Below are positions 1 through 55,170 of a DNA stretch of 55,170 nt, one piece after another; positions within the stretch are counted from its first letter, which is position 1; every line of letters begins with the position of its first letter. The notes beneath the pieces are model-generated. The model was not told the DNA's origin. It saw nothing but the letters and a program-made list of their open reading frames with translations, and made no database searches. The stretch lies in the NCBI GenBank assembly GCA_002700865.1, contig PAFB01000149.1, positions 1-55,170 of the forward strand, written 5' to 3'. This stretch comes from Rhodospirillaceae bacterium. GTDB lineage: Bacteria; Pseudomonadota; Alphaproteobacteria; UBA7985. A program made the translations under genes and the position numbers.

Positions 1-138
1 CGAGCGGTCTTCGTTAGCCTCCATGGCCGCGCGGTCGCGGCGATCGCCGAGGGTGACGCGGTGGCCCTCGCGGGCCAGCAGACCGGCGATCAGGCCGCCC
101 GCCGGTCCGGCTCCGATAACGGCGACGCGCAGGCTCAT
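1..138 (-). CDS. FAD/NAD(P)-binding oxidoreductase, N-terminal 46 codons only (runs off the window edge)
   Basis: Minus-strand ATG at 138..136 forms an ATGA overlap with the stop of the upstream aldolase gene. MSLRVAVIGAGPAGGLIAGLLAREGHRVTLGD carries the GxGxxG dinucleotide-binding fingerprint. The frame stays open to nt 1. Confidence 0.6.
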   Translation of the reverse strand, partial: MSLRVAVIGAGPAGGLIAGLLAREGHRVTLGDRRDRAAMEANEDRS

Positions 139-923
139 GGTCTTTGCAGACGCCGCTTGAGGCCTTCGCTGGCCTCGGTTCCCGCCTGCTTGAGCAAGGC
201 AAGGTCGCTGCCCAGAACCAGCAGCCGGGCCCCGGCGGCGGCGGCGCGATGGGCGCCCTCGGCGTTCATGGCGAAGGTTCCAACCAGCTTGCCCGCCTTG
301 CCCGCCACCGCGAGCACGCGCTCGAAGGCCTCGGCGAGCCGCGGGTCGTCCATGCCGACACCGAGTGAAACGGCCATGTCCCCGGGACCGAAGAACAGCA
401 GGTCGATCCCGTCGGTTTTGGCGATGGCCCCGGCCTGCTCCAACCCGGCGGCGGTCTCGATCTGTGCGCAGACCAGCACCTGCTGATTGGCGGCGCGGAA
501 CATCTGCGGCATGGGAATGGCGCCGTAACCGGTCGCGGGTGTCAGTGGATGGACGCCGCGTGTGCCTTCGGGTGGATAGCGGCACCAGCTGGCCAGTTGC
601 TTGGCCTGCGCAGCGCTCTCGACCATGGGCGCTAGAATACCGTCAGAACCGGCTTCGAGCGCGTCCTGCACTGCCGCGCGGGCGAGTTCGGGGATGCGGG
701 TGATGGCGCTCAGGCCGGCGCGCTGGCTGGCCATGATCAGGCCAGCGGCGGTTTCCACCCCCATGACGGCGTGTTCGCGGTCAATGACGATGCAGCCAAA
801 TCCAGCCTGAGCCAACACGCCGGCGACGGCCGGGTCCTTCAGGGAGGCAAAGGTCGCGGTCATAGGGCCAGCGGCGAGGGTGGTCTTCAAGGTCATAAGC
901 CGGGTCGCACGTGGTTTGCGCAA
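135..923 (-). CDS. HpcH/HpaI-family aldolase (2-keto-3-deoxy-acid aldolase type)
   Basis: 262-aa ORF with family-typical blocks GCIVIDREHA, ITRIPE, DGILAPMVESAAQA, YPPEGTRG, CAQIETAAGL and DLLFFGPGDMA. TTG start at 923, with an alternative ATG at 896. Confidence 0.8.
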   Translation of the reverse strand: MRKPRATRLMTLKTTLAAGPMTATFASLKDPAVAGVLAQAGFGCIVIDREHAVMGVETAAGLIMASQRAGLSAITRIPELARAAVQDALEAGSDGILAPMVESAAQAKQLASWCRYPPEGTRGVHPLTPATGYGAIPMPQMFRAANQQVLVCAQIETAAGLEQAGAIAKTDGIDLLFFGPGDMAVSLGVGMDDPRLAEAFERVLAVAGKAGKLVGTFAMNAEGAHRAAAAGARLLVLGSDLALLKQAGTEASEGLKRRLQRP

Positions 924-1141
924 GCCACTAGAAAATCAGTTTAAAGCACCTAGAGCAATAGGCTGGCGATGTGGGCCAACCGCCCGAACGGATTGATTGT
1001 TCAGAAAGGCGTTTGGCAGCGGTGGCGGTTCCCCTGCACAAACTGCGCGAGATCGGTACAGGCTCTGCGCAGGATCGCGCATTTCGTCAGCCCCTGCGAT
1101 CAACGACCCTGCCGCCTGACCAACCAACTCAAGAGGTAACA

Positions 1142-1276
1142 ATGAACGAAAAACCCCGCTGCGGCTGCGGCCACTCCGTCACCGGTTTCTGCATGGGCTG
1201 GCACGCCCTGTCTGAAGAGGACTATCAGAAGAAAAAAGAGGCCTACGAGCTCAAGCAGCAGAACAAAGAGCGTTGA
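1142..1276 (+). CDS. Small Cys-rich hypothetical protein (44 aa)
   Basis: ATG 1142 has AAGAGG 5 nt upstream. Translation is MNEKPRCGCGHSVTGFCMGWHALSEEDYQKKKEAYELKQQNKER. The 101-aa track ORF from 971 looks like a spurious 5' extension. No family recognised. Confidence 0.45.
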   Translation: MNEKPRCGCGHSVTGFCMGWHALSEEDYQKKKEAYELKQQNKER

Positions 1277-1328
1277 AGCAACCCGGCCGGTCGCCAATAT
1301 AGGCCGACAACGGCAGCAACAGGCGGGG

Positions 1329-2237
1329 GTGAGCGTGGTCGCGTGGACGGAAGTCAGAAGCGCCTACATGGTGGCGAAGCTTGGCACCGTCTCGGCGGCA
1401 GCCGATGCGCTGGGCGTGCACCGCGCCACCATCCTCCGCCATATCGACGCGCTGGAAACCGAGCTAGGGTCGAAGCTGTTCCAGCGCCACCAACGCGGCT
1501 ACACGCCTACCGACGTGGGCCAAGAGCTACTTGAAGTCGGCAGCCGCGCAGATGACGAGCTGACCCAGTGGCTGGGCCGAGCACGACACCGGCGGGACGA
1601 GCCCTCGGGCGAGCTAATCATCACCGCCTTACCCGGCTTCGAAGTTACGCTAGTGCGCGCCATGATCCGCATGCAGCGGGATTTCCCCGCCGTCTCTTGC
1701 CGCATCGTCACCACCGAGCAACTGATGCGGATGGAATTTGGTGAGGCCCATGTTGCCCTCCGGGCAGGTGGTCGACCCAGCAACCCGGATTTCGTGGTGC
1801 TCCATCACAGTAGTCACAGCCTCGGCCTCTTCGCCCACAAGAGCTACACACAGCAGTATGGCATCCCGACCTCAGACGCCGACTTCGAACAGCACCGTTT
1901 CTGCGCGGGGGGCGAGGTCTCCTACCACGTCGGGCCGCTAGAATGGATTGAGCAGAACGTACCGCCAAAGAGCATTGCCCTGCGCACCGACAGCCTGCTG
2001 ATCGGGCACAGCGCCGTGGTCCAGGGCCACTGTATCGGCCCAATGTGGCAGGCCGAGGCCGAGCAAGACCCGGACCTCGTTGAAGTCGTGGCACCGCGCT
2101 CGGACTGGACAATTGATTTCTGGATTGTCACCCATGTTGATCTGCACCGTACCACCAAGGTGCGCTCCTTCGTCCATCGACTGAAGGAAATTGAACTCGA
2201 TCTGGGTGCTGCCCAGCGCCATTGGCCGAAACCCTAA
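1329..2237 (+). CDS. LysR-family transcriptional regulator
   Basis: 302-aa ORF with GTG start. The N-terminal winged HTH (YMVAKLGTVSAAADALGVHRATILRHIDALETELGSKLFQRHQRGYTPT) and the ~200-aa C-terminal effector-domain length are typical of LysR regulators. Confidence 0.85.
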   Translation: MSVVAWTEVRSAYMVAKLGTVSAAADALGVHRATILRHIDALETELGSKLFQRHQRGYTPTDVGQELLEVGSRADDELTQWLGRARHRRDEPSGELIITALPGFEVTLVRAMIRMQRDFPAVSCRIVTTEQLMRMEFGEAHVALRAGGRPSNPDFVVLHHSSHSLGLFAHKSYTQQYGIPTSDADFEQHRFCAGGEVSYHVGPLEWIEQNVPPKSIALRTDSLLIGHSAVVQGHCIGPMWQAEAEQDPDLVEVVAPRSDWTIDFWIVTHVDLHRTTKVRSFVHRLKEIELDLGAAQRHWPKP

Positions 2238-2441
2238 CGCAGTTCGTGTAGGTTGTGGATGCCGGGCATAGTGATGAAACCAGTCAGAGTCCGAACGCGA
2301 TACAACCACGAGCGGATCGCCGGATCGCCGTCATGGTCCAGCCGCGCGATCCGCGACCAGCGAACATGGAATAAGGCACGGCAATCGCCATTTCTCAAAG
2401 CCCGTCAAAAGGCTCGAGGCGCAAAGGGCGGAGCATAGGGC

Positions 2442-3224
2442 TTAAAACAGGATACCGTACGATGGGTCGCGCAGCAGCGTGACCAATGCCGGTGCCCGTT
2501 GCTGCATCAGCGCGGGGGTATGGAGGCGCCACTCTTGGCCTATATCGTCGGCCCGCAGTCGGTTCAGTCCACGCATAGAGGTGATAGCCCAGAAGGTGAA
2601 CTCGGTCACCTGACAGCTGTAGTCACAGGTTCGATCATCGTAGGTGTAGTAAGCACCATTGGGATATCGGTTAGGCACGCGTGCGTGATAACCGCCGCGG
2701 GCTTCATCCATCAGGTCGGCTATGGCGCTACCACGGAACTCCCCGAAGATGTCCGGAAAGACTTCGGCGTAGCCAAACTGGGTGATGAGGTGCAGCGCCT
2801 CTTCGATGGTTGGGTCCCAGCCTTCACGGCCGCTGATGTCCATCTCGTCTTCGAAGACTGAGACGAGAGCATCGTAAGTCTCATGCTGGCTGTCATTCAG
2901 ACTGTCGAAAAGGCGGTCTGCTGCTCGCTCGTTTGGAAAGACGGCGAAAAACGCACCGCTATCGAGTACTTCATCGAGTACAACCGGGCTGTCAGGAACG
3001 CCATTCTGGTCGTAGTCAAGCAGGCTGCGCATCACCTTGTTTGCGTGAACAAGCGCGCGGTTGCTGACCTGGTCTGTGGCACAGACCGGAACGCCGAAGG
3101 TGTCGACGCCATTGCCCCGGAGCTTGTCCGGGCAGGTGCTCTGTGACAGAGCGGAACCGGGATGTACTAAAATCGCGACGAGCGCAAAGAGTGTTGCGTG
3201 AATGCCTGAATTGAGTAGGTGCAT
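2442..3224 (-). CDS. Hypothetical exported protein (260 aa)
   Basis: Long ORF with a signal-peptide-like N-terminus (ATLFALVAILVHPGSALSQ). No family recognised. Lies in the reduced-GC islet. Confidence 0.6.
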   Translation of the reverse strand: MHLLNSGIHATLFALVAILVHPGSALSQSTCPDKLRGNGVDTFGVPVCATDQVSNRALVHANKVMRSLLDYDQNGVPDSPVVLDEVLDSGAFFAVFPNERAADRLFDSLNDSQHETYDALVSVFEDEMDISGREGWDPTIEEALHLITQFGYAEVFPDIFGEFRGSAIADLMDEARGGYHARVPNRYPNGAYYTYDDRTCDYSCQVTEFTFWAITSMRGLNRLRADDIGQEWRLHTPALMQQRAPALVTLLRDPSYGILF

Positions 3225-3304
3225 GGCTTTCTATCCACTTTTTTAGGGGAATTCAGGTAGACACAAGCCCAGCTCTGTTGCCCGCAACAGCTTGCCTCCC
3301 GGCA

Positions 3305-3802
3305 CTAGCACTCGCCCTGCGCCAGAACCTTATCGACGACCGTCTGCAACCGCGTGCTGTAGAGTTCCGGCTGAAAACCTTCAGAAGCATAGAATTCGCA
3401 GTGAATGTCGACTTGCAGTTCCAGCAGATCAATCCACGCCTGGACATTGGGGACGTAAGCCAACACCTGTTCAAAAGTTTCAGTCATGAGCGTTACGTAC
3501 CAGAAATATCGCTCATCATCTTGCTCTGTGTACTCATAATCGCTGAGTAACCCACCGGAAATTGCCGGGTTGTCCATGGAAATTTTGAGAAAGTCCTTGA
3601 AGGCATCACGGGCAGCCTGCTCGTTCTGCACGGCCCACTGCTCCGTAACCTGCCAGTAAGCAATAACGCCAGCGGATATAGCAAGCGCTACTTGCAACAG
3701 CCCGGCCAGTGCCGCCCAAACCACAGAGTTATTGCCCGTGCGAACTACTGGGGCTGGAGCGTCGAGAGACAATGGGCCTTTGGCCTCATTCGAAGATGTC
3801 AT
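3305..3802 (-). CDS. Hypothetical membrane-anchored protein (165 aa)
   Basis: Single predicted TM helix VVWAALAGLLQVALAISAGVIAYW. Same strand as, and tightly spaced with, the flanking exported-protein genes. No family recognised. Confidence 0.55.
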   Translation of the reverse strand: MTSSNEAKGPLSLDAPAPVVRTGNNSVVWAALAGLLQVALAISAGVIAYWQVTEQWAVQNEQAARDAFKDFLKISMDNPAISGGLLSDYEYTEQDDERYFWYVTLMTETFEQVLAYVPNVQAWIDLLELQVDIHCEFYASEGFQPELYSTRLQTVVDKVLAQGEC

Positions 3803-3829
3803 GGCCTGGTCTTCTCCCCCAAGAAAGGC

Positions 3830-4315
3830 TTAAGTGCATTTCCCAGTATAAAGGAATGCGGACGTGCTCAGCGAAACTTCATTGGAATAAACACTGCTAA
3901 TGTGAAGCACCATGCTCATCTCTCCGACATCGAAAGCAAAGTTAAAGCGCGTCATACCCGCCTCGATATCTGCTCCACCAGAGAGCGCAAGCACGCCCTG
4001 CTGAAAGGTATCGATACCAAAGGTATAGATATCGTTTAGGTCCAGATAATCGCTGCCTTCGGTACTTACGAAAACGGAAATCTCGCCCTTATCCGAAACC
4101 ACAAGCTTGTAGACGATATCTTCTGGCCCCAACGTATCGACGGTTAGGCCCCAACCCAGCCGATTTTCGGCCGTAGCACCGCCAGGCAGCTTCTCGAAAC
4201 CGACTATTTCCTCGACCGGACAAATGTAGACGTCGTCCGCGGCAACTGCTGTGCTCGCAATGGCCAAGGCCAGTACTGAGACCAGAAGGTCGCGGAAAAT
4301 AGGTATTGCTTTCAT
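3830..4315 (-). CDS. Hypothetical exported protein (161 aa)
   Basis: Signal peptide MKAIPIFRDLLVSVLALAIASTAVAADD. AGGAGA sits 7 nt upstream of the ATG. No family recognised. Confidence 0.6.
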   Translation of the reverse strand: MKAIPIFRDLLVSVLALAIASTAVAADDVYICPVEEIVGFEKLPGGATAENRLGWGLTVDTLGPEDIVYKLVVSDKGEISVFVSTEGSDYLDLNDIYTFGIDTFQQGVLALSGGADIEAGMTRFNFAFDVGEMSMVLHISSVYSNEVSLSTSAFLYTGKCT

Positions 4316-4371
4316 GGCTTTATCTCCTGGCTACAGCTCGCTTAGGTTCATTCTAGTGTCTTTTTAGGTGC

Positions 4372-4599
4372 TCAAGCAAATTCAGGGCTAAGCGCCCGGT
4401 GGAATGCGCGATAGTGCCTGAGCTGCGCCTCTTGCACTAAGACAGACATCACCCAGAAGTATACTCCATTGTTCGCAGGGAGAGCGGCCGGGCCATCGCG
4501 CTTAAGCTGTGCGAGAAAATATGCGCGCTGATTGCCGACGATCTCTGTGGTAACGTCCGATCGATGGTCAGGAAAACGAGCATTGAGGACGCGGACCAT
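4372..4599 (-). CDS. Hypothetical 75-aa ORF (weak)
   Basis: ORF only. No Shine-Dalgarno and no recognisable family. May be non-coding. Confidence 0.25.
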   Translation of the reverse strand: MVRVLNARFPDHRSDVTTEIVGNQRAYFLAQLKRDGPAALPANNGVYFWVMSVLVQEAQLRHYRAFHRALSPEFA

Positions 4600-4672
4600 T
4601 TCATGAAGACAACGTCCGTGAGGCTAGCGACCAGCCGACAGTTAGGGATCGCATGATGGGGGCTTTCGGGTC

Positions 4673-6202
4673 ATGAGCGCCAGGGACAAAATTGAGCGAC
4701 TCCAGCAGCTTTTTCCCGGCAGCGTAACAGAAACTCAAGACCCCGAAACCGGGCAGGTTACGCTGCGGGTCGCACCCGAACAGCTGCACACGGCACTGCA
4801 GGCAGCGTTAGGCGACGCGTACTGCTCCGCTGAAAAGACCATGCTGACACAGGTCGAAAGCTACGCCTTCACATGGCCGGGGAAGACAGCAGCCCGGCAG
4901 CAGGCTACGGCCCCGGTTTCCGTGCAGTTTCAACCCCGCCCGGACCTGAGTAAGGACCCTGAGACCACCAGCAACCAGCTTATCATCGGCGATAACCTCG
5001 CTGCGCTGAAGCTGCTGCGGGAAGGGTCAGGCACCGACTCACTCGCCGGAAAGGTGCGTTTGATCTACATCGATCCACCCTACAACACCGGCAACGCCTT
5101 CATTTATCCCGATAACTTCCGCGAAAGCCTCCGCTCTTACACCGCGCGCAAACCCAAGACGACCGATCCAGAAGGCCAGAAGGCGTTCGACGACGACGCC
5201 GATCACCACGGCCGCATTCACGCGGACTGGCTGAGCTTCATGCTGCCGCGATTGATTGTGGCGCGTGACTTGCTGCGCGAAGACGGCTGCATCGTTATTT
5301 CCATTGATGAGCACGAGCTCCCCAACCTCTGGAAGCTCTGTGAAGAAGTGTTTGGCGCGGAAAACTTTGTCGAGTGCATGGTCTACGACAAGAAATCTTC
5401 GGCCAAAGGCGTTCCGCCAACGAAGATGATCGCCGGGGTTCACGAATACATGCTGGTTTTCCAGCGCTCTTCCGCCTTTTCATTCATCGGGCGACCACGC
5501 AGTGAGGAAGGCTTTTACAACCCCGACAATGACCCGCGTGGTCCCTGGCGCAACACCAACTGCAAATCGACCGTGAAAGACCCACGCGAGGCCTTCGACG
5601 TCGAAGATCCCGCAACCGGGCGACGGTTCCGCGATGTCTGGGCCTTTAGCCCAGCGGAAATGGCGCGCAAGGCAGCGGCGGGTGAATTGCTGTTCCCCAA
5701 GGCTGACGGCGGACAAGTGCGGATGAAGGAGTATTTCAACGCCTTCCGCAACGCCAACATTCCGATCAAATCGTCTTGGGGGCTCTATGATGCTCAATAC
5801 AACACCCAGTATCTGACCCGGCTTATGGGGACTAAGGTGTTCCTCAACCCCAAGCACATACGGTTGATGCGTGACCTGCTCGCCTATACTACGCAAGGAA
5901 ATGATATCGTACTGGACTTCTTCGGCGGCTCAGGCACGACAGCCGATGCGCTGCTGTCACTCAACGCCGAAGACGGGCATCAGCGACGCTTTGTGCTGGT
6001 ACAACTCGATGTGCCAGTGGAGCCGTCCTCGGCAGCAGGCAAAGCGGGCTACACGACCATCGCCGACCTGTGCCGCGACCGGATCAACCGCGCAGGTGCG
6101 GCGTTGAACCCGGCCGAGGCTCACCCCAACTGGGATGGGAATGTTGGCTATCGCGTGCTTGATCTTGGTCCGCCGACTCCTGTCGATCTGAAAGTGGATT
6201 GA
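4673..6202 (+). CDS. Site-specific DNA methyltransferase, beta-class, type III Mod-like (N6-adenine/N4-cytosine), no adjacent Res
   Basis: 509-aa ORF. Catalytic motif IV IYIDPPYNTGNAFIYPDNF lies near residue 135 and AdoMet motif I VLDFFGGSGTTADA near residue 418. This IV-before-I order is typical of Mod-like enzymes. Confidence 0.85.
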   Translation: MSARDKIERLQQLFPGSVTETQDPETGQVTLRVAPEQLHTALQAALGDAYCSAEKTMLTQVESYAFTWPGKTAARQQATAPVSVQFQPRPDLSKDPETTSNQLIIGDNLAALKLLREGSGTDSLAGKVRLIYIDPPYNTGNAFIYPDNFRESLRSYTARKPKTTDPEGQKAFDDDADHHGRIHADWLSFMLPRLIVARDLLREDGCIVISIDEHELPNLWKLCEEVFGAENFVECMVYDKKSSAKGVPPTKMIAGVHEYMLVFQRSSAFSFIGRPRSEEGFYNPDNDPRGPWRNTNCKSTVKDPREAFDVEDPATGRRFRDVWAFSPAEMARKAAAGELLFPKADGGQVRMKEYFNAFRNANIPIKSSWGLYDAQYNTQYLTRLMGTKVFLNPKHIRLMRDLLAYTTQGNDIVLDFFGGSGTTADALLSLNAEDGHQRRFVLVQLDVPVEPSSAAGKAGYTTIADLCRDRINRAGAALNPAEAHPNWDGNVGYRVLDLGPPTPVDLKVD

Positions 6203-6320
6203 TCCTATCTGACCGCCGCAGGTTTGCCTTGGGCCTCCTAAACCCCATCTCTGGCCCAACGTGTTTCTCCGCACAGGTTTACTGCTCCGCCCTCATCATC
6301 TCTTCTGGAAAGGTTCTCCT

Positions 6321-6518
6321 ATGGCACCCCTGATCGCCATTCTCCTGCTCGTCGGTCTCACCGTGGTCGTGATTGGCGCGCTCGCCATTCCGATGAATTT
6401 CTTCCGCTGGGTCGCGGGCGTCCGCGAGGAGCGGGACCGACTGGAGGCAGAATTGCTGGAGGCACGCCGCGAAATTCGCAGTCTAAAAGAAGAGCTGATG
6501 CGCCAGAACGACAGCTGA
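6321..6518 (+). CDS. Small membrane protein with charged coiled-coil-like tail (65 aa)
   Basis: ATG 6321. Hydrophobic helix MAPLIAILLLVGLTVVVIGALAIP is followed by EERDRLEAELLEARREIRSLKEELMRQ. No family recognised. Confidence 0.4.
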   Translation: MAPLIAILLLVGLTVVVIGALAIPMNFFRWVAGVREERDRLEAELLEARREIRSLKEELMRQNDS

Positions 6519-6592
6519 GTCGACACGCTCAGGCACGTGACACGGCGCTCGAAGCGCGTACCCACGGCGGCACTGTTCAGTATCAGCAGCGC

Positions 6593-7312
6593 TTAACCTG
6601 TGATGCCATGCCCCTTCATGGCCTCCAGATCAGCTTCGATCTCGGTCCAGTCATCGCGTGGCAGCACCACGCAGGGTTGGGCGATGTCTTCGAGCCACGA
6701 AAACACCGAAAAAAACGGCTGTTCGTAGGAGCGCGTTGCATGGGGGGCCATCGACGGATTGTAGACGAGGCTGCCTGGACCAAGATCACGCCAGCCACTC
6801 TGGCCAAAGCGCCAGCCAGACCGTGATGAGAGGTTTAAGTAAGTCTCCGGCGCCGGATGAGCATGGTCGCGGTAAAGCGTATGCGGGTGGAGCAGGAAGA
6901 ACCCAAGCGTAAAATCTGCGTGCTCGAAGCCACAGGCGCCGGGACCGATCAGCAACGTATGCAGATTACCATTTCGATAACCCAAGCCGACATCAGCGTC
7001 CGCAGCGTAATATTTCATCTGGTCCTCGGCCCAGACCAAATCATCGATCGCTGCCCTCAGAGCCCGTTGTAAGGGCAGGAGCAGCGGTGACTGCATCTGG
7101 TCAACAGCCTGGGTCAATAAGGGTTGATGACGGTCGGCGGAGCGGGGCGGACGATCGGTGAAAGCATCGCGGCTGAGCGCTGTCGTCTGCAAACGGTCTA
7201 GCGTGCGCTGCGCCGCCAAGGCAGTGTCCCCGGGCTCAGCAGCAGCGGTACGAAGCATGCCAGCGATAGCCTCGACCACCGCCCGCACACGCTCAAATCG
7301 ACCGGTCACCAT
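6593..7312 (-). CDS. Cupin-fold protein, DddL-like DMSP-lyase family (tentative)
   Basis: 239-aa ORF with a two-motif cupin signature: LGFFLLHPHTLYRDHAHPAPETYLNLS (HxHxxxxE) and GSLVYNPSMAPHAT. Length and block layout resemble what I recall of DddL (LGLVLFAP..YP.H.H....E.Y..LSG ... N.P...H). Confidence 0.55.
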   Translation of the reverse strand: MVTGRFERVRAVVEAIAGMLRTAAAEPGDTALAAQRTLDRLQTTALSRDAFTDRPPRSADRHQPLLTQAVDQMQSPLLLPLQRALRAAIDDLVWAEDQMKYYAADADVGLGYRNGNLHTLLIGPGACGFEHADFTLGFFLLHPHTLYRDHAHPAPETYLNLSSRSGWRFGQSGWRDLGPGSLVYNPSMAPHATRSYEQPFFSVFSWLEDIAQPCVVLPRDDWTEIEADLEAMKGHGITG

Positions 7313-7355
7313 CGGTGACCGCTAGATGTGCGATAACTCCGTCTCATACCGCCGC

Positions 7356-8735: not shown

Positions 8736-8860
8736 CCTGCGTATCCTCCACTACAATAACCTATCAAACACCCAGATAGCATTCCCGGTCGAGAGATCTT
8801 CCAATTTGCGTCACCGATGCGACACCTTTGCACCCTTAAACCGCGACACGTTGACAACCG

Positions 8861-9457: not shown

Positions 9458-9599
9458 AATGCCATTTGCTGCGCCTTTGCCGCGCACAGCAAGCGCAAAG
9501 TCACCGCAGCCGCGCCAGGGTGACAGGCACCCTTGCGGGACTTTTGGGACAAACGGCCTAAATCACCGATCTATTAAGCTTTTTTCCGGAGACTGCGCC

Positions 9600-10907: not shown

Positions 10908-10940
10908 GCTTGACGCCGCCGCCGCGCGCGGGGAGGGTGA

Positions 10941-12521: not shown

Positions 12522-12656
12522 TCGTCGGCACAATAGCGGCCTTGCCCGTCATGGTGAAAAACCTGACCTGTCTGCGCTTGCTTTCGCATTCAATCCGGAT
12601 ATTTGGCAGGGGAGGTTTGAAGACCCCCTTCCCCCCCGATCGCAGGAACCCCTTTC

Positions 12657-21818: not shown

Positions 21819-21833
21819 GTGGAAAATCACGGT

Positions 21834-23003: not shown

Positions 23004-23033
23004 GCTAACTCACCTCGTCTTTGGCCTCGCCGA

Positions 23034-23456: not shown

Positions 23457-23459
23457 GTG

Positions 23460-23474
23460 GTTGATTTTATCAAC
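23460..23474. promoter_or_regulatory. Candidate MarR operator: perfect palindrome GTTGAT-TTT-ATCAAC
   Basis: 6-bp arms with a 3-nt spacer, 4 nt upstream of the marR start codon, in the marR/membrane-protein divergent region. Two further TCAAC half-sites follow (GTCAAC, TTCAAC) within 40 nt. Confidence 0.35.
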
Positions 23475-23993: not shown

Positions 23994-24028
23994 TTCCCTG
24001 CCTGAGTCCCTGCCTGCGTCCCTGCGCC

Positions 24029-47858: not shown

Positions 47859-48578
47859 ATGGTGACCGGTCGATTTGAGCGTGTGCGGGCGGTGGTCGAG
47901 GCTATCGCTGGCATGCTTCGTACCGCTGCTGCTGAGCCCGGGGACACTGCCTTGGCGGCGCAGCGCACGCTAGACCGTTTGCAGACGACAGCGCTCAGCC
48001 GCGATGCTTTCACCGATCGTCCGCCCCGCTCCGCCGACCGTCATCAACCCTTATTGACCCAGGCTGTTGACCAGATGCAGTCACCGCTGCTCCTGCCCTT
48101 ACAACGGGCTCTGAGGGCAGCGATCGATGATTTGGTCTGGGCCGAGGACCAGATGAAATATTACGCTGCGGACGCTGATGTCGGCTTGGGTTATCGAAAT
48201 GGTAATCTGCATACGTTGCTGATCGGTCCCGGCGCCTGTGGCTTCGAGCACGCAGATTTTACGCTTGGGTTCTTCCTGCTCCACCCGCATACGCTTTACC
48301 GCGACCATGCTCATCCGGCGCCGGAGACTTACTTAAACCTCTCATCACGGTCTGGCTGGCGCTTTGGCCAGAGTGGCTGGCGTGATCTTGGTCCAGGCAG
48401 CCTCGTCTACAATCCGTCGATGGCCCCCCATGCAACGCGCTCCTACGAACAGCCGTTTTTTTCGGTGTTTTCGTGGCTCGAAGACATCGCCCAACCCTGC
48501 GTGGTGCTGCCACGCGATGACTGGACCGAGATCGAAGCTGATCTGGAGGCCATGAAGGGGCATGGCATCACAGGTTAA
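47859..48578 (+). CDS. Cupin-fold DddL-like protein (mirror copy)
   Basis: Exact mirror twin of 6593..7312(-). Confidence 0.55.
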   Translation: MVTGRFERVRAVVEAIAGMLRTAAAEPGDTALAAQRTLDRLQTTALSRDAFTDRPPRSADRHQPLLTQAVDQMQSPLLLPLQRALRAAIDDLVWAEDQMKYYAADADVGLGYRNGNLHTLLIGPGACGFEHADFTLGFFLLHPHTLYRDHAHPAPETYLNLSSRSGWRFGQSGWRDLGPGSLVYNPSMAPHATRSYEQPFFSVFSWLEDIAQPCVVLPRDDWTEIEADLEAMKGHGITG

Positions 48579-48652
48579 GCGCTGCTGATACTGAACAGTG
48601 CCGCCGTGGGTACGCGCTTCGAGCGCCGTGTCACGTGCCTGAGCGTGTCGAC

Positions 48653-48850
48653 TCAGCTGTCGTTCTGGCGCATCAGCTCTTCTTTTAGACTGCGAATTTC
48701 GCGGCGTGCCTCCAGCAATTCTGCCTCCAGTCGGTCCCGCTCCTCGCGGACGCCCGCGACCCAGCGGAAGAAATTCATCGGAATGGCGAGCGCGCCAATC
48801 ACGACCACGGTGAGACCGACGAGCAGGAGAATGGCGATCAGGGGTGCCAT
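48653..48850 (-). CDS. Small membrane/coiled-coil protein (mirror copy)
   Basis: Exact mirror twin of 6321..6518(+). Confidence 0.4.
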   Translation of the reverse strand: MAPLIAILLLVGLTVVVIGALAIPMNFFRWVAGVREERDRLEAELLEARREIRSLKEELMRQNDS

Positions 48851-48968
48851 AGGAGAACCTTTCCAGAAGAGATGATGAGGGCGGAGCAGTAAACCTGTGC
48901 GGAGAAACACGTTGGGCCAGAGATGGGGTTTAGGAGGCCCAAGGCAAACCTGCGGCGGTCAGATAGGA

Positions 48969-50498
48969 TCAATCCACTTTCAGATCGACAGGAGTCGGCG
49001 GACCAAGATCAAGCACGCGATAGCCAACATTCCCATCCCAGTTGGGGTGAGCCTCGGCCGGGTTCAACGCCGCACCTGCGCGGTTGATCCGGTCGCGGCA
49101 CAGGTCGGCGATGGTCGTGTAGCCCGCTTTGCCTGCTGCCGAGGACGGCTCCACTGGCACATCGAGTTGTACCAGCACAAAGCGTCGCTGATGCCCGTCT
49201 TCGGCGTTGAGTGACAGCAGCGCATCGGCTGTCGTGCCTGAGCCGCCGAAGAAGTCCAGTACGATATCATTTCCTTGCGTAGTATAGGCGAGCAGGTCAC
49301 GCATCAACCGTATGTGCTTGGGGTTGAGGAACACCTTAGTCCCCATAAGCCGGGTCAGATACTGGGTGTTGTATTGAGCATCATAGAGCCCCCAAGACGA
49401 TTTGATCGGAATGTTGGCGTTGCGGAAGGCGTTGAAATACTCCTTCATCCGCACTTGTCCGCCGTCAGCCTTGGGGAACAGCAATTCACCCGCCGCTGCC
49501 TTGCGCGCCATTTCCGCTGGGCTAAAGGCCCAGACATCGCGGAACCGTCGCCCGGTTGCGGGATCTTCGACGTCGAAGGCCTCGCGTGGGTCTTTCACGG
49601 TCGATTTGCAGTTGGTGTTGCGCCAGGGACCACGCGGGTCATTGTCGGGGTTGTAAAAGCCTTCCTCACTGCGTGGTCGCCCGATGAATGAAAAGGCGGA
49701 AGAGCGCTGGAAAACCAGCATGTATTCGTGAACCCCGGCGATCATCTTCGTTGGCGGAACGCCTTTGGCCGAAGATTTCTTGTCGTAGACCATGCACTCG
49801 ACAAAGTTTTCCGCGCCAAACACTTCTTCACAGAGCTTCCAGAGGTTGGGGAGCTCGTGCTCATCAATGGAAATAACGATGCAGCCGTCTTCGCGCAGCA
49901 AGTCACGCGCCACAATCAATCGCGGCAGCATGAAGCTCAGCCAGTCCGCGTGAATGCGGCCGTGGTGATCGGCGTCGTCGTCGAACGCCTTCTGGCCTTC
50001 TGGATCGGTCGTCTTGGGTTTGCGCGCGGTGTAAGAGCGGAGGCTTTCGCGGAAGTTATCGGGATAAATGAAGGCGTTGCCGGTGTTGTAGGGTGGATCG
50101 ATGTAGATCAAACGCACCTTTCCGGCGAGTGAGTCGGTGCCTGACCCTTCCCGCAGCAGCTTCAGCGCAGCGAGGTTATCGCCGATGATAAGCTGGTTGC
50201 TGGTGGTCTCAGGGTCCTTACTCAGGTCCGGGCGGGGTTGAAACTGCACGGAAACCGGGGCCGTAGCCTGCTGCCGGGCTGCTGTCTTCCCCGGCCATGT
50301 GAAGGCGTAGCTTTCGACCTGTGTCAGCATGGTCTTTTCAGCGGAGCAGTACGCGTCGCCTAACGCTGCCTGCAGTGCCGTGTGCAGCTGTTCGGGTGCG
50401 ACCCGCAGCGTAACCTGCCCGGTTTCGGGGTCTTGAGTTTCTGTTACGCTGCCGGGAAAAAGCTGCTGGAGTCGCTCAATTTTGTCCCTGGCGCTCAT
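48969..50498 (-). CDS. Type III Mod-like DNA methyltransferase (mirror copy)
   Basis: Exact mirror twin of 4673..6202(+). Confidence 0.85.
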   Translation of the reverse strand: MSARDKIERLQQLFPGSVTETQDPETGQVTLRVAPEQLHTALQAALGDAYCSAEKTMLTQVESYAFTWPGKTAARQQATAPVSVQFQPRPDLSKDPETTSNQLIIGDNLAALKLLREGSGTDSLAGKVRLIYIDPPYNTGNAFIYPDNFRESLRSYTARKPKTTDPEGQKAFDDDADHHGRIHADWLSFMLPRLIVARDLLREDGCIVISIDEHELPNLWKLCEEVFGAENFVECMVYDKKSSAKGVPPTKMIAGVHEYMLVFQRSSAFSFIGRPRSEEGFYNPDNDPRGPWRNTNCKSTVKDPREAFDVEDPATGRRFRDVWAFSPAEMARKAAAGELLFPKADGGQVRMKEYFNAFRNANIPIKSSWGLYDAQYNTQYLTRLMGTKVFLNPKHIRLMRDLLAYTTQGNDIVLDFFGGSGTTADALLSLNAEDGHQRRFVLVQLDVPVEPSSAAGKAGYTTIADLCRDRINRAGAALNPAEAHPNWDGNVGYRVLDLGPPTPVDLKVD

Positions 50499-50571
50499 GA
50501 CCCGAAAGCCCCCATCATGCGATCCCTAACTGTCGGCTGGTCGCTAGCCTCACGGACGTTGTCTTCATGAA

Positions 50572-50799
50572 ATGGTCCGCGTCCTCAATGCTCGTTTTCC
50601 TGACCATCGATCGGACGTTACCACAGAGATCGTCGGCAATCAGCGCGCATATTTTCTCGCACAGCTTAAGCGCGATGGCCCGGCCGCTCTCCCTGCGAAC
50701 AATGGAGTATACTTCTGGGTGATGTCTGTCTTAGTGCAAGAGGCGCAGCTCAGGCACTATCGCGCATTCCACCGGGCGCTTAGCCCTGAATTTGCTTGA
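50572..50799 (+). CDS. Hypothetical 75-aa ORF (weak, mirror copy)
   Basis: Exact mirror of 4372..4599(-). Confidence 0.25.
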   Translation: MVRVLNARFPDHRSDVTTEIVGNQRAYFLAQLKRDGPAALPANNGVYFWVMSVLVQEAQLRHYRAFHRALSPEFA

Positions 50800-50855
50800 G
50801 CACCTAAAAAGACACTAGAATGAACCTAAGCGAGCTGTAGCCAGGAGATAAAGCC

Positions 50856-51341
50856 ATGAAAGCAATACCTATTTTCCGCGACCTTCTGGTCTCAGTACTG
50901 GCCTTGGCCATTGCGAGCACAGCAGTTGCCGCGGACGACGTCTACATTTGTCCGGTCGAGGAAATAGTCGGTTTCGAGAAGCTGCCTGGCGGTGCTACGG
51001 CCGAAAATCGGCTGGGTTGGGGCCTAACCGTCGATACGTTGGGGCCAGAAGATATCGTCTACAAGCTTGTGGTTTCGGATAAGGGCGAGATTTCCGTTTT
51101 CGTAAGTACCGAAGGCAGCGATTATCTGGACCTAAACGATATCTATACCTTTGGTATCGATACCTTTCAGCAGGGCGTGCTTGCGCTCTCTGGTGGAGCA
51201 GATATCGAGGCGGGTATGACGCGCTTTAACTTTGCTTTCGATGTCGGAGAGATGAGCATGGTGCTTCACATTAGCAGTGTTTATTCCAATGAAGTTTCGC
51301 TGAGCACGTCCGCATTCCTTTATACTGGGAAATGCACTTAA
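50856..51341 (+). CDS. Hypothetical exported protein, 161 aa (mirror copy)
   Basis: Exact mirror twin of 3830..4315(-). Confidence 0.6.
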   Translation: MKAIPIFRDLLVSVLALAIASTAVAADDVYICPVEEIVGFEKLPGGATAENRLGWGLTVDTLGPEDIVYKLVVSDKGEISVFVSTEGSDYLDLNDIYTFGIDTFQQGVLALSGGADIEAGMTRFNFAFDVGEMSMVLHISSVYSNEVSLSTSAFLYTGKCT

Positions 51342-51368
51342 GCCTTTCTTGGGGGAGAAGACCAGGCC

Positions 51369-51866
51369 ATGACATCTTCGAATGAGGCCAAAGGCCCATT
51401 GTCTCTCGACGCTCCAGCCCCAGTAGTTCGCACGGGCAATAACTCTGTGGTTTGGGCGGCACTGGCCGGGCTGTTGCAAGTAGCGCTTGCTATATCCGCT
51501 GGCGTTATTGCTTACTGGCAGGTTACGGAGCAGTGGGCCGTGCAGAACGAGCAGGCTGCCCGTGATGCCTTCAAGGACTTTCTCAAAATTTCCATGGACA
51601 ACCCGGCAATTTCCGGTGGGTTACTCAGCGATTATGAGTACACAGAGCAAGATGATGAGCGATATTTCTGGTACGTAACGCTCATGACTGAAACTTTTGA
51701 ACAGGTGTTGGCTTACGTCCCCAATGTCCAGGCGTGGATTGATCTGCTGGAACTGCAAGTCGACATTCACTGCGAATTCTATGCTTCTGAAGGTTTTCAG
51801 CCGGAACTCTACAGCACGCGGTTGCAGACGGTCGTCGATAAGGTTCTGGCGCAGGGCGAGTGCTAG
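51369..51866 (+). CDS. Hypothetical membrane-anchored protein, 165 aa (mirror copy)
   Basis: Exact mirror twin of 3305..3802(-). Confidence 0.55.
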   Translation: MTSSNEAKGPLSLDAPAPVVRTGNNSVVWAALAGLLQVALAISAGVIAYWQVTEQWAVQNEQAARDAFKDFLKISMDNPAISGGLLSDYEYTEQDDERYFWYVTLMTETFEQVLAYVPNVQAWIDLLELQVDIHCEFYASEGFQPELYSTRLQTVVDKVLAQGEC

Positions 51867-51946
51867 TGCCGGGAGGCAAGCTGTTGCGGGCAACAGAGCT
51901 GGGCTTGTGTCTACCTGAATTCCCCTAAAAAAGTGGATAGAAAGCC

Positions 51947-52729
51947 ATGCACCTACTCAATTCAGGCATTCACGCAACACTCTTTGCGCTCGTCGCGATT
52001 TTAGTACATCCCGGTTCCGCTCTGTCACAGAGCACCTGCCCGGACAAGCTCCGGGGCAATGGCGTCGACACCTTCGGCGTTCCGGTCTGTGCCACAGACC
52101 AGGTCAGCAACCGCGCGCTTGTTCACGCAAACAAGGTGATGCGCAGCCTGCTTGACTACGACCAGAATGGCGTTCCTGACAGCCCGGTTGTACTCGATGA
52201 AGTACTCGATAGCGGTGCGTTTTTCGCCGTCTTTCCAAACGAGCGAGCAGCAGACCGCCTTTTCGACAGTCTGAATGACAGCCAGCATGAGACTTACGAT
52301 GCTCTCGTCTCAGTCTTCGAAGACGAGATGGACATCAGCGGCCGTGAAGGCTGGGACCCAACCATCGAAGAGGCGCTGCACCTCATCACCCAGTTTGGCT
52401 ACGCCGAAGTCTTTCCGGACATCTTCGGGGAGTTCCGTGGTAGCGCCATAGCCGACCTGATGGATGAAGCCCGCGGCGGTTATCACGCACGCGTGCCTAA
52501 CCGATATCCCAATGGTGCTTACTACACCTACGATGATCGAACCTGTGACTACAGCTGTCAGGTGACCGAGTTCACCTTCTGGGCTATCACCTCTATGCGT
52601 GGACTGAACCGACTGCGGGCCGACGATATAGGCCAAGAGTGGCGCCTCCATACCCCCGCGCTGATGCAGCAACGGGCACCGGCATTGGTCACGCTGCTGC
52701 GCGACCCATCGTACGGTATCCTGTTTTAA
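51947..52729 (+). CDS. Hypothetical exported protein, 260 aa (mirror copy)
   Basis: Exact mirror twin of 2442..3224(-). Confidence 0.6.
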   Translation: MHLLNSGIHATLFALVAILVHPGSALSQSTCPDKLRGNGVDTFGVPVCATDQVSNRALVHANKVMRSLLDYDQNGVPDSPVVLDEVLDSGAFFAVFPNERAADRLFDSLNDSQHETYDALVSVFEDEMDISGREGWDPTIEEALHLITQFGYAEVFPDIFGEFRGSAIADLMDEARGGYHARVPNRYPNGAYYTYDDRTCDYSCQVTEFTFWAITSMRGLNRLRADDIGQEWRLHTPALMQQRAPALVTLLRDPSYGILF

Positions 52730-52933
52730 GCCCTATGCTCCGCCCTTTGCGCCTCGAGCCTTTTGACGGGCTTTGAGAAATGGCGATTGCCGTGCCTTAT
52801 TCCATGTTCGCTGGTCGCGGATCGCGCGGCTGGACCATGACGGCGATCCGGCGATCCGCTCGTGGTTGTATCGCGTTCGGACTCTGACTGGTTTCATCAC
52901 TATGCCCGGCATCCACAACCTACACGAACTGCG

Positions 52934-53842
52934 TTAGGGTTTCGGCCAATGGCGCTGGGCAGCACCCAGATCGAGTTCAATTTCCTTCAGTCGATGGACG
53001 AAGGAGCGCACCTTGGTGGTACGGTGCAGATCAACATGGGTGACAATCCAGAAATCAATTGTCCAGTCCGAGCGCGGTGCCACGACTTCAACGAGGTCCG
53101 GGTCTTGCTCGGCCTCGGCCTGCCACATTGGGCCGATACAGTGGCCCTGGACCACGGCGCTGTGCCCGATCAGCAGGCTGTCGGTGCGCAGGGCAATGCT
53201 CTTTGGCGGTACGTTCTGCTCAATCCATTCTAGCGGCCCGACGTGGTAGGAGACCTCGCCCCCCGCGCAGAAACGGTGCTGTTCGAAGTCGGCGTCTGAG
53301 GTCGGGATGCCATACTGCTGTGTGTAGCTCTTGTGGGCGAAGAGGCCGAGGCTGTGACTACTGTGATGGAGCACCACGAAATCCGGGTTGCTGGGTCGAC
53401 CACCTGCCCGGAGGGCAACATGGGCCTCACCAAATTCCATCCGCATCAGTTGCTCGGTGGTGACGATGCGGCAAGAGACGGCGGGGAAATCCCGCTGCAT
53501 GCGGATCATGGCGCGCACTAGCGTAACTTCGAAGCCGGGTAAGGCGGTGATGATTAGCTCGCCCGAGGGCTCGTCCCGCCGGTGTCGTGCTCGGCCCAGC
53601 CACTGGGTCAGCTCGTCATCTGCGCGGCTGCCGACTTCAAGTAGCTCTTGGCCCACGTCGGTAGGCGTGTAGCCGCGTTGGTGGCGCTGGAACAGCTTCG
53701 ACCCTAGCTCGGTTTCCAGCGCGTCGATATGGCGGAGGATGGTGGCGCGGTGCACGCCCAGCGCATCGGCTGCCGCCGAGACGGTGCCAAGCTTCGCCAC
53801 CATGTAGGCGCTTCTGACTTCCGTCCACGCGACCACGCTCAC
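52934..53842 (-). CDS. LysR-family transcriptional regulator (mirror copy)
   Basis: Exact mirror twin of 1329..2237(+). Confidence 0.85.
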   Translation of the reverse strand: MSVVAWTEVRSAYMVAKLGTVSAAADALGVHRATILRHIDALETELGSKLFQRHQRGYTPTDVGQELLEVGSRADDELTQWLGRARHRRDEPSGELIITALPGFEVTLVRAMIRMQRDFPAVSCRIVTTEQLMRMEFGEAHVALRAGGRPSNPDFVVLHHSSHSLGLFAHKSYTQQYGIPTSDADFEQHRFCAGGEVSYHVGPLEWIEQNVPPKSIALRTDSLLIGHSAVVQGHCIGPMWQAEAEQDPDLVEVVAPRSDWTIDFWIVTHVDLHRTTKVRSFVHRLKEIELDLGAAQRHWPKP

Positions 53843-53894
53843 CCCCGCCTGTTGCTGCCGTTGTCGGCCTATATTGGCGACCGGCCGGGTTGCT

Positions 53895-54029
53895 TCAACG
53901 CTCTTTGTTCTGCTGCTTGAGCTCGTAGGCCTCTTTTTTCTTCTGATAGTCCTCTTCAGACAGGGCGTGCCAGCCCATGCAGAAACCGGTGACGGAGTGG
54001 CCGCAGCCGCAGCGGGGTTTTTCGTTCAT
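53895..54029 (-). CDS. Small Cys-rich hypothetical protein, 44 aa (mirror copy)
   Basis: Exact mirror twin of 1142..1276(+). Confidence 0.45.
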   Translation of the reverse strand: MNEKPRCGCGHSVTGFCMGWHALSEEDYQKKKEAYELKQQNKER

Positions 54030-54247
54030 TGTTACCTCTTGAGTTGGTTGGTCAGGCGGCAGGGTCGTTGATCGCAGGGGCTGACGAAATGCGCGATCCT
54101 GCGCAGAGCCTGTACCGATCTCGCGCAGTTTGTGCAGGGGAACCGCCACCGCTGCCAAACGCCTTTCTGAACAATCAATCCGTTCGGGCGGTTGGCCCAC
54201 ATCGCCAGCCTATTGCTCTAGGTGCTTTAAACTGATTTTCTAGTGGC

Positions 54248-55036
54248 TTGCGCAAACCACGTGCGACCCGGCTTATGACCTTGAAGACCACCCTCGCCGC
54301 TGGCCCTATGACCGCGACCTTTGCCTCCCTGAAGGACCCGGCCGTCGCCGGCGTGTTGGCTCAGGCTGGATTTGGCTGCATCGTCATTGACCGCGAACAC
54401 GCCGTCATGGGGGTGGAAACCGCCGCTGGCCTGATCATGGCCAGCCAGCGCGCCGGCCTGAGCGCCATCACCCGCATCCCCGAACTCGCCCGCGCGGCAG
54501 TGCAGGACGCGCTCGAAGCCGGTTCTGACGGTATTCTAGCGCCCATGGTCGAGAGCGCTGCGCAGGCCAAGCAACTGGCCAGCTGGTGCCGCTATCCACC
54601 CGAAGGCACACGCGGCGTCCATCCACTGACACCCGCGACCGGTTACGGCGCCATTCCCATGCCGCAGATGTTCCGCGCCGCCAATCAGCAGGTGCTGGTC
54701 TGCGCACAGATCGAGACCGCCGCCGGGTTGGAGCAGGCCGGGGCCATCGCCAAAACCGACGGGATCGACCTGCTGTTCTTCGGTCCCGGGGACATGGCCG
54801 TTTCACTCGGTGTCGGCATGGACGACCCGCGGCTCGCCGAGGCCTTCGAGCGCGTGCTCGCGGTGGCGGGCAAGGCGGGCAAGCTGGTTGGAACCTTCGC
54901 CATGAACGCCGAGGGCGCCCATCGCGCCGCCGCCGCCGGGGCCCGGCTGCTGGTTCTGGGCAGCGACCTTGCCTTGCTCAAGCAGGCGGGAACCGAGGCC
55001 AGCGAAGGCCTCAAGCGGCGTCTGCAAAGACCATGA
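54248..55036 (+). CDS. HpcH/HpaI-family aldolase (mirror copy)
   Basis: Exact mirror twin of 135..923(-). Confidence 0.8.
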   Translation: MRKPRATRLMTLKTTLAAGPMTATFASLKDPAVAGVLAQAGFGCIVIDREHAVMGVETAAGLIMASQRAGLSAITRIPELARAAVQDALEAGSDGILAPMVESAAQAKQLASWCRYPPEGTRGVHPLTPATGYGAIPMPQMFRAANQQVLVCAQIETAAGLEQAGAIAKTDGIDLLFFGPGDMAVSLGVGMDDPRLAEAFERVLAVAGKAGKLVGTFAMNAEGAHRAAAAGARLLVLGSDLALLKQAGTEASEGLKRRLQRP

Positions 55037-55170
55037 GCCTGCGCGTCGCCGTTATCGGAGCCGGACCGGCGGGCGGCCTGATCGCCGGTCTGCTGGCCCG
55101 CGAGGGCCACCGCGTCACCCTCGGCGATCGCCGCGACCGCGCGGCCATGGAGGCTAACGAAGACCGCTCG
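55033..55170 (+). CDS. FAD/NAD(P)-binding oxidoreductase, N-terminal 46 codons only (mirror copy, runs off the window edge)
   Basis: Exact mirror of 1..138(-). ATG 55033 overlaps the aldolase stop (ATGA). Confidence 0.6.
   Translation, partial: MSLRVAVIGAGPAGGLIAGLLAREGHRVTLGDRRDRAAMEANEDRS

Follow-up and report, generated by a model that had tools for sequence, protein, structure and literature searches.

A perfectly palindromic 55,170-nt contig in two marine alphaproteobacterial MAGs is very probably an assembly artefact

The window, that is, the whole 55,170-nt stretch of DNA analysed here, is a perfect palindrome, and the palindrome is very probably an assembly artefact in which a 27,585-nt assembled chromosomal sequence was joined to its own reverse complement. 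Under this explanation, one 27,585-nt sequence assembled from a short-read Tara Oceans Mediterranean metagenome would have been linked, at one of its tips, to its reverse-complemented copy, and the product would have been written out as a single 55,170-nt contig. This contig would then have been binned twice, once into each of two MAGs that are both in GenBank. The source region would be ordinary chromosome of an abundant uncultured marine alphaproteobacterium. The features on which the argument relies are the following.

Positions 1 to 27585 (no strand): left arm, one copy of the 27,585-nt fragment, from the chromosome of an uncultured marine alphaproteobacterium.
Positions 27586 to 55170 (no strand): right arm, exact reverse complement of the left arm (0 mismatches), very probably an artefactual second copy.
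Positions 27570 to 27601 (no strand): fold-back junction, with TTGCGGAGCGTCATGC to the left and GCATGACGCTCCGCAA to the right of the axis between 27585 and 27586.
Positions 1 to 138 (minus strand): truncated 5' end (46 codons) of a FAD_binding_3/cNMP-binding oxidoreductase gene at the contig end, mirrored at 55033-55170 (plus strand).
Positions 26277 to 27302 (plus strand): LysR-family regulator of 341 aa, the final full gene before the axis (accessions MAV48162/48165 and RPH11942/11945).
Positions 27290 to 27583 (minus strand): mirror twin of the 97-aa gene (MAV48163.1 / RPH11943.1 or RPH11944.1).
Positions 27588 to 27881 (plus strand): right-arm copy of a native 97-aa hypothetical gene, whose ATG lies 2 nt from the axis.
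Positions 27582 to 27881 (plus strand): chimeric 99-aa annotation MAV48164.1 (CMM70_09930), whose first two codons lie beyond the axis, in mirrored sequence.

The original prediction, made from the sequence alone, was that the window is a perfect, spacer-less palindrome of 2 x 27,585 nt. Full-length comparison of the window with its own reverse complement confirms it, as 55,170 of 55,170 positions are identical (0 mismatches, 0 indels). Base counts are likewise symmetric across the window (A=T=11,123; C=G=16,462). The axis has no spacer, being flanked by ...GAGCGTCATGC on its left and GCATGACGCTC... on its right, and it coincides with the midpoint of the contig. Chance cannot account for it, since a perfect inverted match of 27,585 nt has a probability of about 4^-27585.

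The exact sequence of the fold-back-specific protein MAV48164.1 is found in NCBI only, on one 55,170-nt contig, so that the window is indeed a complete record, as had been supposed. The contig was identified from the cluster table; the gene-position index, which does not include it, gave no match for the 99-aa chimeric protein or for the 396-aa upstream-start version of the luciferase-like gene. Two MAGs carry this contig: one named "Rhodospirillaceae bacterium" (proteins MAV48139-MAV48188) and TMED89 (GCA_002172925.2). In each of the two records, all genes checked carry a pair of protein accessions at mirrored positions on either side of the axis, and the numbers of the mirrored accessions always add up to the same value (96327 for all MAV pairs, 23887 for all RPH pairs). 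These pairs bear out the further claim that gene counts from the record are inflated twofold. Only 27,585 nt are unique, as had also been stated.

The genes of the arm (25 ORFs scanned) are ordinary metabolic and regulatory genes; DMSP genes are among those carried. The outer ends of the window cut through a gene, as had been noted from the sequence: positions 1-138 (minus strand) encode the first 46 aa, with the GxGxxG motif, of a 657-aa FAD-binding oxidoreductase. No telomere-resolvase (protelomerase), integrase, partition or replication gene was found among the 25 ORFs, and a PHROGs search of the arm returned no phage-structural or replication family. The PHROGs matches of the 509-aa methylase are to DNA methyltransferase families only, and the one remaining match in the arm is to a weakly similar acetyltransferase. 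Megablast of 25 kb of the arm detected no phage similarity, and plasmid similarity was limited to three short matches in an acyl-CoA ligase gene. Given these results, a plasmid or phage origin was rejected.

Evidence on the nature of the junction comes from the same locus in other assemblies. Fifteen independent contigs, at 99.4-99.9% identity, pass straight through the axis into other, non-mirrored chromosomal genes (a 189-aa ORF, an SBP_bac_3 gene, Impact_N, EamA, LysR and a Na/H exchanger). Among them are a 121,794-nt scaffold (L040), the GTDB species representative (L021) and a contig of TMED89 itself (NHEQ02000111.1, L010), which thus shows the native arrangement in the same pooled dataset and bin. 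A 37,194-nt Tara scaffold (L015, L033, L041) covers nearly the whole arm and then continues for more than 9 kb past the axis. The arm is collinear at 99.4-99.9% identity with native loci of the same population (L001-L011, L013-L015, L017-L021) and about 97% identical to a sister lineage (L012, L016); the relatives are named as Rhodospirillaceae, Geminicoccus or unclassified Alphaproteobacteria MAGs, and a Roseobacter origin, suggested by the DMSP genes and the GC content, was rejected. Left-arm alignments that extend as far as the axis all end at 27585, and right-arm alignments begin exactly at 27586. It had been proposed to search for the 27.6-kb unit continuing into non-mirrored sequence, and such continuations exist on both sides: past the axis in these 15 contigs and past the outer end in two. 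This native read-through at the axis supports the original proposal of a technical or in-silico fold-back of one ~27.6-kb genomic fragment, of which the in-silico option fits best.

The native breakpoint falls within coding sequence, among the final codons of the 189-aa ORF and 2 nt upstream of the ATG of the 97-aa ORF. Twenty-eight indexed blocks of the collection contain the exact 97-aa protein, and the 189-aa ORF lies upstream and overlaps it by ATGA in all ten places fetched. The native letters are ...GAGATCGCT and GCATGACG... on the two sides of the breakpoint, with 0 nt shared left of the axis in 10 of 10 loci. No palindrome, inverted repeat or microhomology was found at the native breakpoint, and the only inverted repeats near it are imperfect, of chance-level quality (9-11 nt, 59-133 nt apart) and off-centre. 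A natural palindrome or inverted repeat that folds a de Bruijn graph at this place was therefore rejected. As zero microhomology bars a de Bruijn fold-back on the native sequence, the junction k-mers need an outside source, such as chimeric reads or a software step.

The provenance of the records agrees with a short-read origin. The TMED genomes (NHBG-NHMJ, including NHEQ, which is TMED89) were obtained from Tara Oceans Illumina paired-end reads with MEGAHIT v1.0.3, CD-HIT-EST and Minimus2, the latter run with OVERLAP=100 and MINID=95 (TMED paper). Short-read de novo assembly is thus documented for TMED89. For the "Rhodospirillaceae bacterium" (MAV) record, we infer the same origin and the same pipeline (the TOBG set of Tully et al.), because the contig and the contig count are shared and the record carries the 'MAG:' naming. 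Both published descriptions, that of TMED and that of the presumed pipeline of the second record, give 660,937 Mediterranean secondary contigs; since these counts agree, one assembly was probably binned twice. Neither long reads nor whole-genome amplification appear in the published methods for TMED89 and for the presumed pipeline of the second record.

The comparison of the two arms points to a single assembled sequence. Between samples, contigs of this population diverge by 0.1-0.6%, whereas the arms differ at 0 of 27,585 nt. The arms therefore derive from one assembled sequence rather than from two samples or two molecules; they are identical at every base, and share the same outer end, because this one sequence was used twice. 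A Minimus2 merge of two contigs from different samples was rejected on the same grounds, as 0.1-0.6% divergence would be expected and no difference is seen. The limits of the arm also recur in other assemblies. Five of eight independent contigs end at most 273 nt from the window's outer end (at +51, +19, -30, -197 and -273 nt), and an independent metaSPAdes contig of 27,497 nt reaches 19 nt past the outer end on one side and stops 95 nt before the axis on the other. As both the clustered contig ends and the metaSPAdes contig match its limits, the arm behaves as a natural assembly unit. Native sequence extends past the outer end in two contigs (L028, L029), and this position is a recurrent assembly break caused by strain variation, not a biological boundary.

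Two variants of the joining step can be suggested, both of which would yield exactly 2 x 27,585 nt. Our best guess for the first is that a few chimeric reads provided a self-reverse-complementary (k+1)-mer at a tip of the MEGAHIT graph, and that MEGAHIT wrote out the resulting palindromic unitig whole. In the second, equally conjectural, MEGAHIT might have folded the unitig to one arm plus a terminal palindrome of k+1 nt (100 nt if the final k was 99), after which the all-against-all Minimus2 step (OVERLAP=100) could have matched the end of the contig to that of its reverse-complemented copy and merged the two. The two variants depend on what we take to be the handling of palindromic unitigs by MEGAHIT, its preset list of k values and the treatment of self-overlaps by Minimus2. 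Terminal palindromes, which would be the sign of a folded palindromic unitig, were absent from the other contigs fetched: in a scan of 43 loci, nothing gave a signal except runs of N in two scaffolds (L001, L020).

The explanation that survives best after an assembly artefact places the origin in the wet lab. Chimeric molecules may have formed physically in the Illumina library, by strand-switching or fold-back at a broken end during end repair or PCR, and then have been assembled faithfully. Such molecules would supply the junction-spanning k-mers that a k-mer assembler needs from somewhere, given a native breakpoint without palindrome. Another assembly also breaks 95 nt from the axis, so that the true path may be weak there and a rare chimeric path may win. 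However, priming by fold-back usually requires a short inverted repeat, and its products retain a loop or spacer; neither feature is present. The junction is also absent from every other assembly and collection searched: the junction 32-mer has 0 matches in GTDB representative genomes, IMG/VR and JGI metagenome contigs, and no junction-crossing protein variant other than MAV48164.1 is on record. We regard this origin as possible but rather unlikely; it overlaps with an assembly artefact in that both are technical.

A real inverted duplication in a subpopulation of cells in one Tara sample is much less plausible. A chromosome break next to the 97-aa gene, capped by a hairpin and then replicated, would give a giant perfect, spacer-less palindrome without microhomology, as observed here, which must then have persisted until it was sequenced. 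Against this, all 15 independent contigs that cover the axis are native, including the one from the same dataset and bin, and the outer ends match a recurrent assembly break instead of a biological boundary. A biological duplication seeded by a short inverted repeat (fold-back priming) is not supported, as there is neither such a native repeat at the breakpoint nor a central spacer. Long perfect palindromes are not stable in bacteria, owing to SbcCD and replication slippage. Palindromic contigs are a documented assembler error.

Long-read or amplification artefacts (a missed SMRTbell adapter, a nanopore template-complement read or an inverted MDA chimera) had been put forward as technical causes, and a spacer-less junction at an arbitrary position without microhomology does fit a hairpin adapter that was missed, or a strand switch at the end of a template. 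They are nevertheless extremely improbable: the Illumina, MEGAHIT and Minimus2 provenance, with methods that include neither long reads nor whole-genome amplification, excludes them for TMED89, and raw long reads would not give 27,585/27,585 identity.

Finally, an unfolded covalently closed hairpin telomere of a linear replicon, or a head-to-head replicative dimer junction of one, fits only in its formal geometry (a perfect spacer-less palindrome) and has a negligible probability, as the axis falls within coding sequence, all native contigs covering it run on into further genome sequence (among them the 121.8-kb scaffold), the native sequence has no palindromic resolution site, the 25 ORFs include none of the protelomerase, integrase, partition and replication genes, and phage similarity is absent while plasmid similarity is short and scattered. 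The biological alternatives first envisaged (a hairpin-ended replicon, a head-to-head dimer junction or a break-induced palindrome) are thus left without support, the axis being intragenic, the native breakpoint having no palindrome or inverted repeat and the arm no telomere-resolvase or replicon gene.

An assembly artefact, which remains our preferred explanation, makes this contig a matter of data hygiene only, as it carries no information on the biology of the organism. It doubles about 25 genes in two public MAGs and has introduced at least one chimeric protein into NCBI nr (MAV48164.1, with two spurious N-terminal residues). Estimates of redundancy, copy number and pangenome content would be inflated by it, and the contig might be mistaken for a hairpin-ended replicon, or for a complete element bounded by inverted terminal repeats. 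The prevalence of such contigs in MEGAHIT + Minimus2 pipelines could be measured by testing each contig against its own reverse complement.

Among known systems, the replicons resolved by protelomerases (TelN of phage N15, ResT of Borrelia, TelA of Agrobacterium) also show a perfect palindrome, which in their case arises from a replicated hairpin end. They differ from the present contig, where the arm carries no resolvase gene, the native locus has no palindromic site, the axis is intragenic and the chromosome continues. Fold-backs from SMRTbell, nanopore or MDA data share with our case an inverted junction, spacer-less or nearly so, at an arbitrary genomic position, but they need another type of data, as TMED89 is from Illumina reads only (and the second record presumably so). 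In addition, Lasken and Stockwell reportedly described in 2007 that MDA chimeras usually show microhomology and an offset between the two breakpoints; both are zero here.

The closest likeness is with assembly errors. Whole-contig perfect palindromes have been described as such errors in short-read SPAdes assemblies of isolates (81 contigs; PMC9455707), and whole-contig palindromes have also been reported for SAG assemblies (bioRxiv 10.1101/2023.06.06.543983). As in the window, the whole contig is then an exact palindrome, its genes occur as identical reverse-complement twins, gene counts are inflated and annotations are duplicated. Our literature search turned up no paper describing such contigs for MEGAHIT or Minimus2 in particular. 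Those cases concern isolates or SAGs, whereas the present contig was obtained from a metagenome with MEGAHIT v1.0.3 followed by Minimus2; it is a large (55 kb) and persistent example, being present in two GenBank MAGs.

The window is identical to its own reverse complement at 55,170/55,170 positions (self reverse-complement comparison), so the original prediction of a perfect palindrome spanning the whole contig holds exactly. The two arms meet without a spacer at the axis 27585|27586 (...GAGCGTCATGC|GCATGACGCTC...), and such a palindrome cannot have originated by chance. An exact scan for the junction 32-mer returned no match in GTDB representatives, IMG/VR or JGI metagenomes.

Native, non-mirrored sequences of the same population show what lies across the axis. 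The 97-aa hypothetical ORF adjoining it (27588-27881) occurs in 28 indexed blocks of the collection, and at 10/10 loci fetched a 189-aa ORF lies before it, the two overlapping at ATGA. Farther upstream those loci carry a non-mirrored set of genes: SBP_bac_3, Impact_N, EamA, LysR and Na/H exchanger. The right arm is 99.4-99.9% identical to the native loci, with alignments beginning precisely at 27586, and all left-arm alignments reaching the axis in the native loci compared end at 27585. The base directly left of the axis differs in all ten loci (native ...GAGATCGCT|GCATGACG vs window ...GCGTCATGC|GCATGACG). In total, 15 independent contigs read natively through the axis, including a 121,794-nt scaffold (L040), a 37,194-nt Tara scaffold (L015, L033, L041) carrying nearly the whole arm plus more than 9 kb beyond the axis, and a GTDB species-representative MAG (L021). 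The breakpoint separates the two final sense codons of the 189-aa ORF and sits 2 nt upstream of the ATG where the 97-aa ORF begins; no inverted repeat centred on this breakpoint was found in the native sequence.

The fold-back creates ORFs that are impossible on the native sequence, with several in-frame starts possible. The 99-aa version whose start, 27582, lies to the left of the axis corresponds to MAV48164.1 (CMM70_09930, "MAG: Rhodospirillaceae bacterium"), from a single 55,170-nt contig, and its twin is MAV48163.1. MAV48164.1 (27582-27881, +) is chimeric, as its first two residues (MR) come from mirrored sequence while the native protein has 97 aa; NCBI protein cluster entries contain no other junction-crossing variant. 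Six further window proteins each have two accession pairs, symmetric about the axis, with constant pair sums (96327 for MAV and 23887 for RPH); the RPH accessions are those of "Alphaproteobacteria bacterium TMED89" (GCA_002172925.2, NHEQ02).

Window proteins with mirrored accession pairs
LysR regulator, 341 aa: MAV 48162 / 48165; RPH 11942 / 11945
Luciferase-like monooxygenase, 361 aa: MAV 48161 / 48166; RPH 11941 / 11946
MarR regulator, 140 aa: MAV 48158 / 48169; RPH 11938 / 11949
DNA methylase, 509 aa: MAV 48143 / 48184; RPH 11927 / 11960
Hypothetical, 260 aa: MAV 48140 / 48187; RPH 11924 / 11963
LysR regulator, annotated as 289 aa: MAV 48139 / 48188; RPH 11923 / 11964

These mirrored pairs in both series indicate that one mirrored contig was deposited in two MAGs, and the doubling of gene counts that had been anticipated is real (about 25 genes). 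TMED genomes (NHBG-NHMJ) derive from Tara Oceans Mediterranean Illumina reads, assembled per sample with MEGAHIT v1.0.3 (meta-sensitive preset), then passed through CD-HIT-EST (-c 0.99) and Minimus2 (OVERLAP=100, MINID=95) (PMC5507172). A global-ocean paper from the same group describes an identical pipeline and 660,937 Mediterranean secondary contigs, the same count as in the TMED paper. Given this shared pipeline and count, the simplest reading of the MAV and TMED89 records is one assembly that went through binning on two occasions, so they do not count as independent of each other. A further TMED89 contig, NHEQ02000111.1 (L010, 8,905 nt), is 99.58% identical to window 21346-27585 and crosses the axis natively, so the true junction is present in the same pooled dataset. 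As TMED89 v2 holds both the palindromic contig and this separate one, the region 21346-27585 is present three times in the MAG, a strain-level redundancy in the bin.

Pfam scans of one arm (25 ORFs) gave the following gene content.

Genes of one arm
Outer 138 nt of the window: FAD-binding oxidoreductase, truncated
Arm: HpcH/HpaI aldolase
Arm: LysR regulators (two)
Arm: MarR regulator
4673-6202 (+): DNA methylase, 509 aa
6593-13844 group: DMSP-lyase-family cupin
6593-13844 group: M24 peptidase (creatinase-like)
6593-13844 group: LysE exporter
6593-13844 group: DUF3422
6593-13844 group: AMP-dependent ligase
6593-13844 group: GCV_T-family (DmdA-like) aminomethyltransferase
Arm: adenine deaminase
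Arm: DsbA-like proteins (two)
Arm: FAA hydrolase
Arm: OsmC-like protein
Arm: DUF1800/DUF1501 pair
Arm: alpha/beta hydrolase
Arm: luciferase-like monooxygenase

Judging by these assignments, the arm carries ordinary chromosomal genes. No telomere resolvase, integrase, replication, partition or phage-structural protein was found among the 25 ORFs (Pfam and PHROGs), and scans of one arm detected no tRNA or Rfam family. In a megablast search with 25 kb of the arm, nothing matched phages, and the plasmid matches were limited to three short ones, all in the ligase gene.

The predicted truncated oxidoreductase at the ends is indeed there: of its 657 aa, the outer 138 nt code for the N-terminal 46, GxGxxG motif included. 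Native sequence continues beyond the outer end with the oxidoreductase gene, then AdoHcyase, CobW and more genes. Of eight independent contigs, five stop close to the window's end, at +51, +19, -30, -197 and -273 nt relative to it, and an unrelated metaSPAdes contig (27,497 nt) extends from 19 nt past the outer end to 95 nt before the axis. The arm thus behaves as a natural short-read assembly unit with recurrent break points. Contigs assembled independently from different samples with MEGAHIT or metaSPAdes (L030-L034) repeatedly end at most ~270 nt from the outer end, either within the HpcH gene or where the FAD-binding oxidoreductase gene begins, and the last 34 nt of one of them (L032) diverge. 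This pattern suggests a strain-variation hotspot that breaks short-read assemblies.

In a sister lineage (L012, L016; ~97% identity), similarity to the window is lost left of 6635. Between the HpcH-family and DMSP-lyase genes, this lineage has only one Abhydrolase_3 gene, whereas the window lineage has a LysR gene, three hypothetical genes and the 509-aa methylase. The ~5.7-kb stretch 924-6634 (mirror 48537-54247) therefore looks like a strain-variable island. One hypothetical gene (165 aa, 3305-3802, -) matches the PADLOC model Drt1b|RTasTM (E=3.5e-22), which describes the small protein that accompanies a defence reverse transcriptase, and the neighbouring methylase (4673-6202, +) matches Type III methyltransferase models (E=1e-130, PADLOC). 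Neither a reverse transcriptase nor a Res subunit was seen near these two genes, so the Drt1b-like gene may be a remnant or belong to an unrelated membrane-protein family.

The genes at 6593-13844 suggest, as a prediction from their families, that this pelagic alphaproteobacterium, uncultured but sampled widely, can break down DMSP or methylated amines. Over 20 contigs from Tara, HARO18 and KOPF15 keep the same gene order. Two apparent size differences among native loci are not biological. Behind them are runs of N, which are scaffold gaps (around 3779 in L001 and at 12152-12251 in L020), and a 228-nt duplicated alignment segment, possibly introduced by scaffolding, of HARO18 scaffold_1337 (L001, L014) against window 23906-24133, in the interval from the 149-aa ORF to the hydrolase gene.

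How did the join arise? Contigs of this population from different samples diverge by 0.1-0.6%, while the two arms show 0 differences where separate samples or contigs would give tens; both arms are thus one assembled sequence used twice. The native breakpoint has no palindrome on which the graph could have folded back, so genuine sequence by itself is not enough, and the junction k-mers must derive from a small number of chimeric reads or else from the software. MEGAHIT keeps both strands explicitly and can produce palindromic unitigs, which it would fold into one arm ending in a (k+1)-nt palindrome. With a final k of presumably 99 for the preset used, this palindrome would be 100 nt, exactly the Minimus2 overlap threshold. 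Two candidate routes thus fit the observed length: a Minimus2 self-overlap join would give 2 x (27,585 + 50) - 100 = 55,170 nt, and an unfolded MEGAHIT unitig would likewise measure 55,170 nt.

The technical or in-silico fold-back originally proposed is thus upheld by native read-through in 15 contigs and by the short-read provenance of TMED89. Its suggested SMRTbell, nanopore and MDA causes are excluded for TMED89 by the Illumina provenance, and for the MAV record only if it is the same assembly. Chimeric reads formed in the wet lab are a possible, if rather unlikely, seed of the fold-back, and would be compatible with an assembly artefact. A true palindromic duplication in a subpopulation of cells is very improbable, as it has no positive support and the same dataset contains native read-through. 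A hairpin telomere or dimer junction can practically be dismissed: it is contradicted by native read-through, the axis lies inside coding sequence, and there is neither a resolvase gene among the 25 arm ORFs nor a resolution site at the native breakpoint.

The palindrome is an assembly artefact of a known kind, not a biological feature, and it persists in two public MAGs, with about 25 genes doubled and one chimeric protein in nr. Whole-contig perfect palindromes have been described as assembly errors in short-read SPAdes assemblies (81 contigs in an M. bovis study; PMC9455707) and are also documented in SAG assemblies (bioRxiv 10.1101/2023.06.06.543983).
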